Below, piece after piece: positions 3,091-37,205 of a stretch of 64,000 nt of DNA; the stretch's first letter is position 1; every line of letters starts with the position of its first letter. This DNA is from Sphyrna mokarran (lineage: Eukaryota): NCBI GenBank assembly GCA_024679065.1, contig JAGIQG010000018.1, positions 16,926,001 to 16,990,000 of the forward strand, given 5' to 3'. A program made the translations under genes and the position numbers. The notes beneath the pieces are model-generated. The model made no database searches. It was not told the origin of the DNA and was given only the letters and a program-made list of their open reading frames with translations.

Positions 3091-3237
3091 TTTGAGACTT
3101 TGTGCTTCTGCAGTTCAAAGAGTTAATTACTTCAGTTTGTTTCAGATGTTTGTATGGTAATGAGTTTGCAAAGTGAAAACAAACAGTATTTAAAAGATTA
3201 GATTGTTTCTTAGCCATTGCCTGTATTATTAGTCCAG

Positions 3238-5208
3238 ATGTGGAGATGCAGGCATTGGACTGAGGTAAGCACAGTAAGAAGTCTCACAACACCAGGTTAA
3301 AGTCCAACATGTTTATTTGGTAGCACAAGCCACAAGCTTTCAGAACACTGCCCCTTCATCAGGTGAGTGGGAGTTGTGTTCACAAACACGGCATATATAG
3401 ACACAAACTCAATTTACAAGATAATCGTTAGAATGCAAGTCTTTACAGATAATCAAGTTCTAAAGGTACAGACAATCTAAGTGGAGAGAGGATTAAAGAG
3501 GTGTGTATTGTCTCCAGCCAGGACACTTGGTGAGATTTTGCAAATCCAGGCAAGTCATGGGGGTTACAGATAGTGTGACATGAATCCAAGATCCCACTTG
3601 AGGCCGTCCTAATGTGTGCAGAAACTTGGCTATCAGTTTCTGCTCAGCGATTCTGCGCTGTCATGGGTCATGAAGGCCGCCTTGGAGAACATTTACCCGA
3701 AGATCAGAGGCCGACTGCCCGTGACTGCTGAAGTGTTCCCCAACAGGAAGAGAGTATTCCTGCCTGGTGATTGTTGAGCGGTGTTCATTCACCTGTTGTT
3801 GTAATGTCTACATGGTCTCTCAAATGTACTATACCTCGGGACATCCATTCCTGCAGCATATCAGGTAGACAACGTTGGCTGAATTGGAAGAGTATGTACC
3901 ATGTACCTGCTGGATGGTGTTCTCACGTGAGATGATGGATCCGTGTCGATGATCTGACATGTCTTACAGAGGTTGCTGTGGCAGGATTGTGTGATGTCTT
4001 GGTCACTGTCTCCTGAAGGCTGGGTAGTTTGCTGCAGACATTAGTCTGTTTGAGATTGTGCAGTTGTTTGAAGGCAAAAGGTGGAGATGTGGGATAGCCT
4101 TAGCGAGATGTTCGTCTTCACCAATGACATATTGAAGGCTCCAGAAAAGATATTGTACCTTCTTCTGTCCGGGCAAGTACTGGATAATGAAAGATACTCT
4201 GTTCACTGTATCCCGTGTTTGTCTTTTGAGGAGGTCAGTGTGGTTTTTCACTGTAGTGTGTCAGAACTGTCGATCGATGCGTCAAGTGTCATATCCTGTT
4301 CTTATGAGGGTATCATTTCAGCATCTGGAGGTGTCTTTTGTGATCCTCCTCATCTGAGTGGATTGCTAAGGCCATTCCAATACCCTCCACTTCTTGCCTG
4401 TAAACAACCGCACAACCTCAAACAGACCAATTTCCACAAAACTATCCAGCCTTCAGGAGAACAGTGACCACAACACCACACAACCCTGCCACAGCAACCT
4501 CTGCAAGATGTGTTGGATCATCGACATGGATGCTATCATCTCACGTGAGAACACTATTCGTCAGATACACAGTACGTACTGTTGCAACTCGGCCAACATT
4601 ATCTATCTAATACGCTGCAGGAAAGAATGTTCTGAGGTATGGTACATTTTGGAGACCATGCAGATGCTGCGACAACAGATGAATGAACACCGCTGGATAA
4701 TCACCAGGCAGGAGTGTTCTCTTTCTGTTGGGGAACACTTCAGCAGTCACAGGCATTCAGCTTCTGATCTTCAGGTAAGCATTCTCCAAGGTGGCCTTCA
4801 TGACCCGCGACAATACAGAATCACTGAGCAGAAACTGATAGCCAAGTTCTCACACGTGAAGAAAGCCTCAATTGGAATTTTGGGTTCATGTCACATTAGC
4901 TGTAACTCCCATAACTTGCCTAAGCTTGCAAAATCTCACTAATTGTCCTGGGGAGACAAATACACACCTCTTTAACCTATGCTTAACCCTCTCTCCATTC
5001 ATGTCGTTTTTTACCTTTAAGACTTGATTACCTGTAAAGACTCACATTCCAACTTTTATCTTGTAAACTGAGTTTGTGTCTGTATATGCTGTGTTTGTGA
5101 ACACAACTCTGACTCACCTGATAAAGGGCCAGTACTCCGAAAGCTTGTGGCTTGTGTTACCAAATAAATTAGTTGGACTTTAACATGGTGTTGTGAGACT
5201 TCCTACAG
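3238..5208. mobile_element. Penelope-like retroelement (GIY-YIG end plus terminal repeats), inverted arrangement, with TSD
   Basis: ORF 4394-4942 carries the PLE Cys linker and GIY-YIG (CKMC...CNSANIIYLIRC...WYILET...RQQMNEH...VGEHFS...EQKLI). About 3272-4105 is the reverse complement of about 4364-5208. Flanks ttattagtccag (3226-3237) and ttattagcccag (5209-5220). Confidence 0.9.
3331..3367 (-). ncRNA. Minimal type I hammerhead ribozyme motif in a Penelope terminal repeat
   Basis: Minus strand reads UCAC-CUGAUGA-A-GGGGC AGU GUUCU-GAAA-GC-UU-GUGG: intact core, stem II with G-U pairs, stem I UCAC/GUGG, palindromic AGCU in place of stem III. Confidence 0.7.
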
Positions 5209-5927
5209 TTATTAGCCCAGGCCATTGTTCATTAGTCCAGTAAAATAACCAATAGACTGCAGTTTATCTGTAATGTTTAACCATTTGGATGGGTAGTGGG
5301 GAAGGAATTGCCACAGTTAAACCTTGTACTCTCACTGACATCAATGGGGTTATTGAATAATGAGCAGGCCTGGAGCCTTGGCTGATCTTTCTTCACCCAG
5401 TCTACCCTGAGGCATTGTGACTAATTGATGGCTTCCACCACTGCGCTGATAGAAATTGGTTATCTGGGTACCATAATTTGAATTAGGCACCCAACTGACT
5501 TAATACTTCATACAGTGACACATCAGGGGAGCTCAAGCAGTTAAAGATTTTTGTGCTTTACAAAAATGAATATTAGTAAACGTTTTGCATGATCTGATTC
5601 CATGTTCAGTAGGTTAAGTGGAATAGCAGCCACAAAATTGTCTATTCCTGTGCTGTCATCAGTTGTGGAGTGGCACTGGCAACATTACTAGTTTCTGATG
5701 GAAAGCAATTAAATCGTGTGGAACAACAGAGTGGTGAGAATGTGGAACTCTGCCACATCAAGGTGAATAAGGAAGGTTTGCTAAGTACATAATGGATAGA
5801 GTTATGTGAAGCAGGGAAGAAGGTGGCTTGTCTGCAGCAGTGATAATATTGTAATTATTGATATTCTGACAGCAAAATTTAAGAAAAGACATTTTAATCA
5901 TTGGATGTAATTTTTCTGTTTGCCTAG

Positions 5928-18465: not shown

Positions 18466-18557
18466 AAAAAAAATTTCCAGTTTCCAATCTTTACCTTTAG
18501 GCAATTATCCTTTGCTAACATGTTACATGACTCAAGCCAGTTGATGAAGTCAAGACT

Positions 18558-18740
18558 AGTAAGAAGTCTGACAACACTGGGTTTAAGTCCAACTGATTTA
18601 TTTGACAGTAAACTCACAAGCTTTTGGCAAACCCCAAAAGCTTGTGAGTTTACTATCAAATAAATTGATTGGACTTAAACCTGGTGTTGTCAGACTTCTT
18701 ACTGTGTTTACCCCAGTCCAACGCCAGCATCTCCATATCA
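18558..18740. mobile_element. Palindromic non-autonomous Penelope-terminus derivative with TSD
   Basis: Arms 18558-18627 and 18634-18703 are inverted (64/70 match). Flanked by atgaagtcaagacta (18544-18558) and atgaaatcaagacta (18740-18754). Confidence 0.85.
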
Positions 18741-19136
18741 TGAAATCAAGACTAAGGCAGAGAGCCTTTTCAAGCAGGAAGAGTTTATTGACTTAGTACA
18801 AGTCAACAGTCGTCCACCCTACCTGCATTCCAGCTATCCCCATTTTTAGGTGTACAAATACCCATCACCTGATTAACGATGGAATTACCATTGAACAGTA
18901 ACGTGATTGCCATTGAAGTTTAACAATGTAATTGTCAATAATATCGACAAAAGAAAGAGAACAATAGTCAAACATGAGCTGAGTGACACTGGATGGACTT
19001 TGATCATAAATCTTCTATAACTGTGCATTTTTAATTCCTTCACTATTATTTACAACAAAAATACTTTGAAATTTCATCTGTCAAAAAAATTTCTGTTATG
19101 GTGTGTAGTACTGTCAGCAATAGGACAAATCTCTGA

Positions 19137-27435: not shown

Positions 27436-27461
27436 GTAACTCTGCAGCCTTGTTCCTATAG

Positions 27462-27584
27462 CCATAATGCAGAGATGCTGGCATTGGACTGGGATGGGCA
27501 CAGTAAGAAATCTCTTAACATCAGGTTAAAGTTCAACAGATTTATTTGGTATCAAGAGCTTTCAGAGTGCTGCTCCTTCATCAG
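27462..27584 (-). mobile_element. 123-bp Penelope-terminus insertion carrying a hammerhead core, with 10-bp TSD
   Basis: Same family as the 3238 terminus. Flanked by gttcctatag at 27452-27461 and 27585-27594. Minus strand starts CUGAUGA-A-GGAGCAGCACUCU-GAAA-GC-UC. Confidence 0.85.
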
Positions 27585-27594
27585 GTTCCTATAG

Positions 27595-28467: not shown

Positions 28468-28868
28468 AGAGTTGAGGAGGAACTTCTTCACTCAAAAGGT
28501 GGTGAATCTCTGGATTCTCTACCCATTGAAGTGGTGGAGGTTACCTCGTTGAATATATTTAAATCGCAGGTAGATAGATTTCTGATAGACAAGGGAATTA
28601 AGGGTTATGGGGAGAAAGTGGGAAAGTGGAATTGATTTACTTCAAATCAGCCATGATCTTATTGAAGTCACGATGTGGAGATGCCAGCGTTGGACTGGGG
28701 TAAACACAGTAAGATGTCTGACAACACCAGTTTTAAATCCAACCGATTTATTTGATAGTAAACTCGTAAGCTTTCGGCTCTATGGCCTTTGTCAGGCGAA
28801 TGAGGAATGCCAGGGCAGGCTCGAAGGGTTAGGTGGCCTTCTCCTGCTCCTATTTCTTATGTTCTTAT
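28468..28868 (+). mobile_element. CR1 3' end (same subfamily as 18203-18465) interrupted by a short Penelope-terminus insertion at about 28667-28804
   Basis: gttgaggaggaacttcttc...ttcttatgttcttat aligns with the 18203 copy. The insert begins gtcacgatgtggagatgccagcgttggactgggg. Confidence 0.85.
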
Positions 28869-29454: not shown

Positions 29455-30637
29455 TCATGTCTCACAAATTTGATTAAGTGTATGAAGGGATAACCAAAAA
29501 GATAGATGAGGGCAGTGCAGTTGATATTGTCTACATAGACTTTAGCAAGGCCTTTGACAAGGTACCAATTTACATCTCTCAGGATCCAGGTTGAGGTATC
29601 TAAATGAATGCAAAATTAGCTCCTTGACAGAAGCCAGAGCTTGGTTGTGCAGGATTGTTTTTCAAACTGGAGGCCTGTGACCAGCGGTATGCCTCGGGGA
29701 TCAGTGCTGGGTTCACTGTTATTTGTCATTTGTAGGAAGCACTGTTAGTAAATTTGCAGATGACGCCAAGATTAGTGACATAGTGTACAATGAAGAAAGC
29801 TATATCCAATTGCAGTGGAATTTTGATCAATTGGACCAATGGGCTGATGAAGGGCAGATGGAGTTTAATTTAGACAAATGCAAAGTGATGCATTTTGGTA
29901 GATTGAACCAGGGCAGGACTTACTCAGTTAATAGTAGGACACTGGGGAGAGTTACAGAACAAAGAGGTCTAGGGACACATATTCATTGCTCTTGAAAGTG
30001 GAGTCACAGGTGGAGAGCTGAAGAAAGCATTTGACATGTTTGGTTTCATTGGTCAGAACACTGATTACAGGAGTTGGGACAAAATAAAAAACATTGGTAA
30101 GGCTACACTTGGAATACTGTGTACAGTTCTGGTCACTATTATAGGAAGGATATTATTGAACTAGAAAGGGTGCAGCTAAGATTTACTAGGATGCTGCCAG
30201 GACTTGATGGTTTGAGTTATAAGGAGAGGCTGGATAGACTGGGACTTTTTTCTCTGGAGGATAGGAGGCTGAGGGATGATCTTAAAGAGGTCTGTAAAAT
30301 AATGAGATCAGCTAGATAGTCAATATATTTTCCGAGAGTTAGGGGAGTCTAAAACTAGGGGGCATAGGTTTAAGTTGGGAGGGGAGACATACAAAAGTAT
30401 CCAGAGGAACAATTCTTTTCACACAGAGGGTGGTGAGTGTCTGTGGAACAAGCTGCCAGAGGTGTAGTAGAGGTGGATACAATTTTGTCTTTTGAAAAGC
30501 ATTTAGACAGTTACATGGGTAAGATAGGTATTGAGGGATATGAGCCAAATTAGGATTAGTTTAGGGGTTTAAAAAAAAGAGTGGCATTGGCAAGTTGGGC
30601 CGAAGGGCCTGTTTCCATGCTATAAATCTCTATGACT
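29455..30637 (+). mobile_element. CR1/HER1-like LINE, 5' truncated
   Basis: [42 protein letters not shown]; tail gggccgaagggcctgtttccatgc. Confidence 0.92.
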
Positions 30638-34559: not shown

Positions 34560-35300
34560 TTGAGGAGTATACATGTAACGGAAAAGGAGTTGCTGAAGTC
34601 CTAAAGTGCATCAAGATAGATAATCCTCGGGACGTGAGGAAGTGTATCCCAGGGAGGTGAGGGAGGAAATTGTGGGTCTCTTTGCAGAGATAATTGAATC
34701 ATTAATAGTCACAGGTGAGGTGCCAGAAGATTAGAGGGTCGCAAATGTCCTGCAGAGAAAAGCCTGGAACTACACGCCAATGAGAATCACATCTGTGGTG
34801 GGTAAGTTGCTCGAAGGTATTTTGGGAGGCAGGATCTACAGGCATTTAGAAAGGTAAGGACTGATTAGGAACAGTCAGCATGGCTTTGTGACTTGAAAAT
34901 CATATCTCACAAATTTGATTGAACAGGTAACCGAGAAGGTTGATGAGGACAGTGCAGTTGATGTTGTCTACATGGACTTCAGCAAGATCTCTGACAAGAT
35001 ATCACATGGTAGATTGTTACCTCAATCTCATGGGATCCAGATTGAGGTAGCCAAGTGGATACAAAATTGGACTTGATGACAGAAGACAGAGGGTTGTTTT
35101 TCAACCTGGAAGAATGTGACCAGCGGTGTGCCTCAGAGATCGGTGCTGGATCTACTGTTATTTGGCATTTATATTAACGATTTGGATGAGAATTTAGTAG
35201 GCATGGTTAATAAGTTTGCTGATGACCCTAAAATTTGTGGTATAGTGGAAAGTGAAGATAGTTATCTGGGATTGCAACAGAATCTTGATCAATTGGGCCA
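34560..35300 (+). mobile_element. CR1/HER1-like LINE internal RT fragment
   Basis: EVPED, SQHGFV, VYMDFSK, TSGVPQRSVL..LLFGIYINDLDEN...NKFADD. Confidence 0.9.
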
Positions 35301-35304
35301 TGAG

Positions 35305-37205
35305 CCTCTGGACCTTTTTGTATCTCTCCCCCCACTTACCTTAAACATATGCCCTCTAGTTTTAGGCTCCTCTACCTTTGGGAAAAGATACTGACAGTCT
35401 AGCTGATCTGTGCCCCTCATTATTTTATAGACCTCTATAAGATCACTCCTCAGCTTCCTATGCTTCAGAGAAAAAAGTCATATTCTATCCAGCCTCTCCT
35501 TATAACTCAAACCATCAAGTCCTGGCAGCATTCTAGTAAATCTTTTCTGCACTCTTTTTAGTTTAATAATATCCATTCTATAATAGAGAACTGAACACAG
35601 TATTCCAAATGTGGCCTTACCGATGCTTTTGTACTTTGTCCAACTCCTGTATTCAGTGTTCTGACCAATGAAACCAAACATGCCAAATGCCTTCTTTACC
35701 ACTCTGTCCACTTTCAAGGAGCAATGAACATGTGCCCCTATATCTCTTTGTTCTGAACTTTCCCTAATATCCTACCATTAACTGAGTAAATCCTCCCTGG
35801 TTCAATCTACCAAAATGTATCACCTTGCCTTTGTCTAAATTAAACTCCATCTGCTGTGCATGAACCCCTGGTCCAATTGATCAAAATACCGTTGCAATTG
35901 GAGATAATTTTCTACACTATCCACTACACCACCAATCTTGGTGTCATCTGCAAATTTACTAACCATGCTTCCGATATTCTCATCCAAATCATTAGTATAA
36001 ATGACAAATAACTGCTGGTCACAGGCCTCCGGTTTGAAAAACAACCTTCTACAACCGCCCTCTGGCTTCTGTCAAGAAGCCAATTTTGTATCCATTTAGT
36101 CAACTCACCCGGGATCCTGTGAGATTTAATTTTATGCAACAATCTAGCATGCGATACCTTGTCAAAGGCCTTGCGAAAGTCCATGTAGACAACATCAACT
36201 GCACTGCCCTCATCTACTTTCTTGTTTACCCTTCAAAAAACTTAGTCAAATTTGTGAGATGTGATTTTCCACTTACAAAGTCATGCTGACTGTCCCTAAT
36301 CAGTTCTTGCATCTCTAAATGCCTGTAGATTCTGCCTCTCAGAATACCTTTCAACAATTTACCCACCACAGATGTGAAACTCACTGGCCTGTAGTCCCCA
36401 GGCTTTTCTTTGCAGCCCTTTTTAAACAAAGACACAATATTCACCACTCTCCAAACTTCAGGCACCTCACCTGTGACTATCGAGGATTCAAATATCTCGA
36501 CTAGGGGACAAGCAATTTCCTCTCTCGCCTCCCACAATGTCAGAATTGGCCTTGCCCCAATTTAGAATTTTAACTTTTGGGCAAGACCTATCATACTCCA
36601 TAGCTATCTTAAAACCAATAGAATTATGATCACTGGTCCCAAAGTGATCTCTCACTAACAATTCTGTAACCTGCCATCCTTACTTCCCAAGAGGAGGTCA
36701 AGTTTTGCCCCTTCTCTAGTTGGTCCATCCACACACTGAATAAGAAATTCCTCCTAAATACACTCAACAAATTTCTCTCCATCCAACCCTTTAATACTAT
36801 GGCTGTCCCAGTCAATGTTGGGAAAGTTAAAATCTCCGACTGTTATCACCCTATTATTCTTGGAGCTATCTGTAATTTCCTGCCGACTATTTTGGAACCT
36901 ATAGTACAATCTATCAAAGTGATTTCCCTCTTCTTATTTCTCAGTTCTACCCATATAGAGTCAGTAGCCAAATCCTCGGATATATTCCCTTTCAGTATGG
37001 TCATGATGCTTTCCCTAATCAAAAGTCCAACTCCCACTCCTGTCTTGCCTCCTATATCTTTCCTATAGCATCTATACCCAGGAACATTAAGCTGCAAATC
37101 CTGTCCCTCTATTAGCCGTGTTTCAGAAATTGCTGTAACATCCCAGTCCCACATACCCATCCATGCCCCGAGTTCATCTGCCTTGCCTGTCAGGTCTCTT
37201 GCATT
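35305..37205 (-). mobile_element. CR1/HER1-like LINE with endonuclease and RT fragments, internal deletion near 36540
   Basis: WDVTAISETRL..GQD.QLNVPGYRCYRKD (APE endonuclease), [47 protein letters not shown]. Confidence 0.92.

Follow-up and report, generated by a model that had tools for sequence, protein, structure and literature searches.

Short hammerhead-bearing inserts in Sphyrna mokarran are end-pieces of a Penelope-like retrotransposon, probably left by reverse transcription running off a capped RNA

Introduction

Endonuclease-bearing (EN+) Penelope-like elements (PLEs) of the Neptune and Penelope-Poseidon kinds are described as combining an RT with a C-terminal GIY-YIG domain, hammerhead-bearing pLTRs, a tail of 30-40 bp, inverted arms and TSDs, and their insertions are often found truncated (PMC8557442, PMC3846280). 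The pLTR of the rotifer Penelope Pen2a contains a TATA box and an initiator-like motif (PMC8557442, PMC3846280), and the transcript of Drosophila Penelope starts inside the pLTR (PMC2377424). Questions raised for PLE replication concern the template strand, the use or not of RNA cut by the hammerhead, and the way in which the pLTR is restored (PMC3846280, PMC2377424, PMC4209133). For the origin of head-to-head inversions, self-priming of an antisense template has been favoured (PMC3846280).

The closest biochemical account concerns PAc, a Poseidon element of Anolis carolinensis. Its tail is defined in vitro by internal RT starts at either end, both target strands are cut and extended, and uncleaved RNA is the main substrate, i.e. 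hammerhead cleavage is dispensable (PMC11167929). Minimal hammerheads of metazoan PLEs have been characterized by their core boxes, a bulged base before stem II and a palindromic AGCU replacing stem III, mostly as single dispersed copies from truncated PLEs (PMC4209133). Finally, the non-LTR retrozymes are non-coding, carry a type I hammerhead and are related to pLTRs, from which they are proposed to derive (10.64898/2026.07.22.740005).

Here, we analysed a 123-bp insert with a hammerhead motif in a 64,000-nt stretch of the Sphyrna mokarran genome (assembly GCA_024679065.1, contig JAGIQG010000018.1, positions 16,926,001 to 16,990,000), hereafter the window, together with its relatives in the same genome. 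The traits of build listed above for EN+ PLEs, for the minimal hammerheads and for the sequence make-up of non-LTR retrozymes have their likeness in the shark copies, and those of PAc in the mechanism proposed for them; the differences are taken up below.

Methods

Copies were collected with a 29-nt anchor at the 3' end of the element, which occurs 1,876 times without mismatch in the 2.77-Gb genome, and with two further anchors (744 and 965 genome matches). From the 210 anchored loci taken, six duplicates (L013, L037, L102, L104, L118 and L120) were removed, leaving n=204, and L001-L010, which had been picked with the whole 123-bp query, were excluded from every end count. Altogether, about 1.8 Mb of the 2,773 Mb was inspected. 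End rates are expressed as ends per nt at risk over the 204 copies anchored on their 3' end, and the peak window of -125 to -144 was chosen after the data had been seen. Counted back from the ATG of the ORF, the hammerhead C3 lies at -126 and the predicted cut between -98 and -97; C3-6 and similar terms give the distance upstream of C3.

Results

Insert and hammerhead remnant

The features of the window are listed in Table 1. A first-pass annotation had described a 123-bp insert with a perfect 10-bp TSD, and both points hold, as GTTCCTATAG is found at 27452-27461 and again at 27585-27594. It had further placed the start of the minus strand exactly at CUGAUGA; this strand of the insert does open with CTGATGA, but the two TSD bases adjoining the core (AC) are also the element's own upstream bases, which leaves the 5' boundary anywhere from C3 to C3-2. 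At the other end, the first three TSD bases past the 3' end (CTA) match the continuation of the ORF, ATGG-CTA. With 2 nt at the 5' and 3 nt at the 3' junction shared in this way between TSD and element, the insert length is 123-128 bp. The absence of the 5' strand of stem I was confirmed in the sequence, and so was the assignment to a Penelope terminal segment, i.e. the pLTR and tail of an endonuclease-bearing PLE. Among the short inserts that had been named as related, the one at 28667-28805 indeed ends about 10 nt past the core, but its TSD is unclear, and the one at 18558-18740 is a fold-back joined in stem II. Elsewhere in the window, long direct and inverted repeats at 29455-30396 and 34652-36533 resemble pieces of another LINE-type element.

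Table 1. Coordinates of the insert, its parts and the related copies in the window
Feature	Position	Strand	Description
Insert, 123 bp	27462-27584	-	Penelope-like 5' UTR segment, from hammerhead core to ORF start codon
TSD copy, element 3' side	27452-27461	+	First 3 nt on the minus strand (CTA) are also the ORF continuation
TSD copy, element 5' side	27585-27594	+	2 nt adjoining the core equal element upstream sequence (microhomology)
Start codon (ATG)	27463-27465	-	Start of the RT-endonuclease ORF in ORF-bearing copies
PLE tail	27466-27503	-	About 35-38 nt, from the outer end of the inverted arm to the main 3' end; basis includes PMC11167929
AATAAA	27541-27546	-	Possible poly(A) signal by motif; GT-rich stretch about 20 nt later
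Minimal type I hammerhead remnant	27556-27584	-	By sequence; motif definition from PMC4209133
Remnant, CUGAUGA	27584-27578	-	Followed by a bulged A
Remnant, stem-loop II	27576-27564	-	One mismatch
Remnant, GAAA	27563-27560	-	
Remnant, palindromic GCUC	27559-27556	-	Predicted cut between 27556 and 27555
Short copy, other subfamily	28667-28805	-	Reaches about 10 nt beyond the core at its 5' end; TSD unclear
Head-to-head fold-back	18558-18740	.	Junction of the arms in stem-loop II; TSD of 15 bp, one mismatch (18544-18558 and 18740-18754)
Longer copy, same element	3231-5227	.	Minus arm with endonuclease-coding DNA, TATA-like box and full hammerhead; inverted plus-strand arm

The hammerhead assignment is made because of the minimal core boxes and the covariation of stem II. 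The core boxes are intact in 101 of 445 arms, and pairs 3 and 4 of stem II show compensatory double changes across subfamilies (p 0.003 and 0.005, uncorrected for kinship), while Rfam at its gathering score returned nothing in the window. To judge from its sequence, the copy in the insert cannot be a working ribozyme, since stem I has lost its 5' strand, T replaces G at position 1.1, and stem II holds a mismatch. The AATAAA motif is kept in most aligned copies.

Read in antisense, positions -132 to -124 of the element, the exact span of the C3 boundary, form what we take to be a perfect splice donor. Through this donor-like motif, copies lying in host introns could create cryptic donors.

Identity and abundance of the element

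The insert is the 3' terminus (pLTR and tail) of an endonuclease-bearing PLE. Long copies continue upstream into DNA translating to a GIY-YIG-type endonuclease, and the tail is joined to one common coding start at 83 places, the ATG at the 3' end of the insert being the start of the ORF. Among the 46 ORF-start loci examined, six continue past RT and endonuclease as far as a second terminal repeat, with the ORF start and the 3' part within about 2.3-2.9 kb of each other. The broken frames of ORF-bearing copies still show RT motifs and others of GIY-YIG type. In the RT-EN linker, where the Neptune clade has a Zn-finger-like Cys motif, the translations look Cys-rich by eye. Atlas look-alikes of two ORF pieces carry RVT_1 in 11-27% of members and, likewise on a minority of them, HTH_animal and GIY-YIG (10-27%); a Pfam scan of 10 short stop-free ORF pieces gave one weak irrelevant match and nothing relevant. 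The EN+ Penelope-like set of an RT plus GIY-YIG ORF, pLTR arms, tail, hammerhead and TSD was found in full.

An adjacent inverted arm is present in 118 of the 204 copies, with arm starts centred on -33 to -39, i.e. about 35 nt inside the 3' end. TSDs of at least 8 bp, mostly 11-13 bp, occur in 83 of the 204, compared with 0-2 per class for shuffled flank pairs. The main 3' ends of inserts fall at ATG +1 to +6, and the 3' junctions match the target over a mean of 1.6 nt vs 0.4 nt when shuffled; among the 83 TSD-bearing copies, the match between target and first ORF bases reaches up to 7 nt.

With about 52 tail-bearing arms per Mb in the fetched loci, the genome would hold a rough 10^5 copies, among which the insert is an ordinary dead one. 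The suggestion that this class was a candidate for a poorly described system was not borne out: it is a by-product of a known element, not a separate system.

A different product of the RT start region is seen at L255 (G000:C1326:49725582-49726360 approx.), a minisatellite of about a dozen tandem 43-bp units without hammerhead, each made up of the last 14 nt of the tail and the first ~29 nt of the ORF.

Distribution of 5' ends

The 5' ends are strongly clustered. From -125 to -144, 61 ends over 1982 nt at risk give 0.031 per nt, about six-fold the flanking rates of 0.0052 on the 3' side (68 ends; p~5e-21) and 0.0047 on the 5' side (34 ends; p~5e-19, n=204). A uniform spread, named beforehand as the outcome that would speak for ordinary truncation, was not seen. 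The same pattern is found with the first 88 copies only (0.018 vs 0.0059 and 0.0032; p 5e-4 and 6e-6).

The pile-up spans CUGAUGA to about 18 nt upstream, with the highest bins at -130 to -139, i.e. 4-13 nt upstream of C3. Base by base, L011-L270 contribute 17, 9, 5, 7, 19, 21, 21, 11, 7 and 13 ends at C3-0 to C3-9, and 22 further ends at C3-10 or beyond. Inverted arms behave alike, as 44 of the 72 at risk end in the peak (110 far ends in total). For the subfamily of the insert this applies to 42 of 64 copies at risk, for the remaining subfamilies to 19 of 66, and among ORF-bearing copies to seven of the 11 that reach -125 (hand tally).

On the 3' side of the fold (-90 to -119) the rate is 0.003-0.007 per nt without enrichment, and the window around the cut site holds six ends over 1525 nt (0.0039 per nt), no excess over background. 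A minor rise (0.006-0.010 per nt) is seen at -60 to -79. The UTR contains an 8-bp inverted repeat at -72 to -65 and -25 to -18 (about 27530 and 27490 in the window), one arm of which coincides with this rise.

One further copy, L261, carries a second insert at about +2430 to +2840 from the ATG, in which the hammerhead segment (-134 to -95) recurs five or six times in staggered units of ~43 bp. Their arrangement suggests that RT primed several times over at the peak position, or slipped locally; the lower end of the repeats is near the predicted cut site.

An extra G and a candidate start site

The base next in line after the cDNA copy of the A at C3-6 was tallied wherever it differs from the templated G, which is the case at 570 places vs 1,982 with G. 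Among the 100 matches listed of the 570, it is C in 52, A in 26 and T in 22. When the following bases were fixed (AAD or TW) so as to keep out junctions with the partner arm, whose start is rich in C, the base before AAD was C in 89 and T in 11 among the 100 matches listed of 168 (background C share 0.52), and before TW it was C in 66 and T in 34 among the 100 listed of 156 (background C share 0.39), these two sets overlapping partly with the unfixed one. A control two bases away gave C in 46 and T in 33 of all 79, in line with the background (AAD junction vs this control, Fisher p 3e-6). At C3 itself, likewise used as a control, C also exceeded T (23 vs 15 among the 100 matches listed), an excess that comes mostly from partner-arm joins, which confound this control.

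A scripted count over 228 arms ending near the core yielded 34 G, 11 A and 7 T at the C3-6 junction and 15 G and 28 A at C3-0/-2/-4. Under the strictest exclusions, i.e. with the loci of the unfixed count and palindromic joins out, 14 G, 7 A and 2 T are left at the junction (p 0.012). By a hand split, the extra G is present in 23 of 30 tail-less arms vs 11 of 22 tail-bearing ones.

TATAWAWR is found in 20 of 163 long arms, in 14 of them 37-38 nt before C3 (31-32 nt before the A), and the full consensus is absent from the other 143; most subfamilies match TATA only poorly. We take the CC-A-CT surrounding the A at C3-6 to be an initiator-like context, so that TATA and initiator-like motif would occur in the pLTR together. 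This is the arrangement of rotifer Pen2a (PMC8557442, PMC3846280).

From these junctions we infer that the A 6 nt before the core is a main Pol II start and the extra G a copied m7G cap, as 5' guanines of full-length LINE-1 copies have been read (PMC2831318). A non-templated base at one position points to a physical 5' end of the RNA as the cause of the stops. Because the peak is broad, the capped A would not be its lone mode, and ends upstream of the A need extra start sites or chance matches. The insert itself has no extra G and sits on the shoulder of the peak, in the bin -125 to -129 with 0.012 per nt; since this is only about 2.4 times background and the G is lacking, it may be an ordinary truncation.

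In the literature searched, we found neither a cap-G signal, strong-stop, strand transfer or capped starts for Penelope nor a paper on Neptune in sharks; Repbase, supplement figures and subscription papers were outside this scope and may show end peaks. New here are the cap-G evidence and the base-level predictions; the element, like its truncated copies, belongs to a type already described.

Discussion

Run-off at a capped 5' end

The insert is a PLE end-piece, and we consider it probable that such stubs arise when RT begins near the ATG and continues until it runs out of template at the 5' end of a capped, uncleaved RNA. A pLTR transcript from the element's own terminal promoter would begin 6 nt before the ribozyme core. 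The 3' end of the cut target would then prime RT at ATG +1 to +6, aided by 1-3 nt of pairing, and RT, starting about 130 nt from the cap, would run off the end, often adding a C opposite the cap. The inverted arm would result from another priming event, on the opposite strand and about 35 nt further upstream, and the cDNA would be joined to the target or to the second cDNA by short microhomology, with a few bases trimmed. For the copy at 27462-27584, 4-6 nt and the G may have been lost when the cDNA end met the target via the 2-nt match. For longer copies, the source would be tandem RNA made by read-through, or a jump between templates. The tail-less inverted arms, too, appear to have been copied from capped sense RNA, because they carry the G signal best.

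Splicing to a shared upstream exon was considered as well and rejected, as the flanks of 23 non-inverted peak copies show scattered pairwise matches and no common sequence.

Alternative explanations

The ribozyme fold is an obvious place for RT to pause or fall off, or for the cDNA to fold back on the stems, in which case no RNA end would exist there, and the first-pass annotation had offered RT arrest at this fold as one of its two readings. Some fold-back joins do lie within stem II, as in 18558-18740, the rise at -60 to -79 matches one arm of the 8-bp inverted repeat, and the breadth of the peak speaks for such arrest. However, RT meets the fold from its 3' side (-97 to -106) and the ends lie 0-18 nt after it, beyond the whole motif, and a pause predicts no single extra base at one position. 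Arrest at the fold therefore fits poorly and, as a general account, is quite unlikely; it explains some of the stem II joins and perhaps the minor rise, not the main peak. The other reading, a retrozyme-like family in which self-cleavage yields monomer or circular RNAs that PLE enzymes insert, could draw on the conserved motif with its compensatory changes in stem II and on the proposed derivation of non-LTR retrozymes from pLTRs (10.64898/2026.07.22.740005). Self-cleavage would leave ends at the cut site, where no excess was found. The look for tandem copies that had been recommended gave four head-to-tail pairs among 268 hammerhead-bearing, tail-reaching arms in the ~1.8 Mb inspected (two of the pairs being one duplicated locus), none of them of equal monomers. 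Moreover, short copies form no separate lineage and ORF-bearing copies share the peak, so this proposal fell as well and is highly improbable. A fixed circular RNA was rejected since the ORF-to-pLTR joins differ per copy, spreading from +21 to +208.

Stubs might also be copied from short non-coding masters, i.e. solo pLTRs with a promoter and a capped start, mobilized in trans in the manner of SINEs. The subfamily of the insert is rich in stubs compared with the others (see above), and short copies resemble each other slightly more (0.84) than short resemble long (0.82) or long resemble long (0.80). Yet long and ORF-linked copies occur in this subfamily too (L103, L117, L171, L240 and L243), the stubs are without promoter and cannot re-seed themselves, their 3' ends carry the first bases of the ORF, and the RNA of the Anolis element needs the first 172 nt of the ORF (PMC11167929). 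Such masters are possible but not needed, and we give them little probability.

A strong-stop jump?

In retroviruses and LTR elements, minus-strand strong-stop DNA is made by an RT that starts shortly inside the RNA and runs off its capped 5' end. The proposed stub mechanism resembles this in the short distance to the RT start and in the run-off at a capped end, an analogy of mechanism and not of membership; unlike strong-stop DNA, the stubs would be primed by cut chromosomal DNA, not by a tRNA, and inserted directly. An extension of the run-off model holds that PLEs make strong-stop cDNA in the retroviral manner, whose jump onto the 3' end of a unit-length RNA normally restores pLTR and tail, the stubs being failed jumps. 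The pLTR would then consist of a U3 (promoter), an R (from the cap to a poly(A) site near -57) and a U5 (to the RT start at the ATG). AATAAA and the GT-rich stretch do lie downstream of the inferred cap site and upstream of the RT start. Were AATAAA used, the processed RNA would have the RT start at its 5' end only, and long copies would need such a jump. We regard this extension as tentative and on the whole doubtful.

Peak-ending arms at five loci (L161, L240, L243, L244 and L245) go on into the ORF at +52 to +72 with junctions that vary per copy, and these are candidate template jumps at the inferred RNA 5' end. In a mosaic test for strand transfer on 45 long copies, upstream, middle and tail regions were mostly concordant, with one clear mosaic (L175), in which the tail of one subfamily is found on the hammerhead and upstream region of another.

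Comparison with described elements and implications

Compared with truncated EN+ PLE insertions as described (PMC8557442, PMC3846280), the truncation of the shark copies is strongly non-random and accompanied by an extra G at one base. In contrast to antisense self-priming (PMC3846280), the two arms of the shark copies end at one place, arguing for a sense capped template. Unlike in PAc, whose hammerhead overlaps the ORF start and whose RT start lies about 110 nt inside the ORF, the shark ribozyme lies within a 5' UTR some 130 nt long, with the probable RT start at the ATG; for PAc, priming is also reported as non-homologous (PMC11167929), whereas the shark 3' junctions show the microhomology given above. 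A cleaved or circular RNA template was proposed for the minimal hammerheads (PMC4209133), while the shark junctions point to uncleaved RNA. Tandem units each with a complete ribozyme, which define non-LTR retrozymes (10.64898/2026.07.22.740005), were not seen among the 268 arms.

For PLE replication, the junction record predicts that transcription starts at one A, and that a capped, uncleaved sense RNA templates both arms. It further predicts that the ribozyme stands at the very start of the transcript (its first ~35 nt), and that cleavage there would take the cap off the RNA. If the strong-stop jump were true, it would supply the missing mechanism of pLTR regeneration and a link between the replication of PLEs and that of LTR elements.
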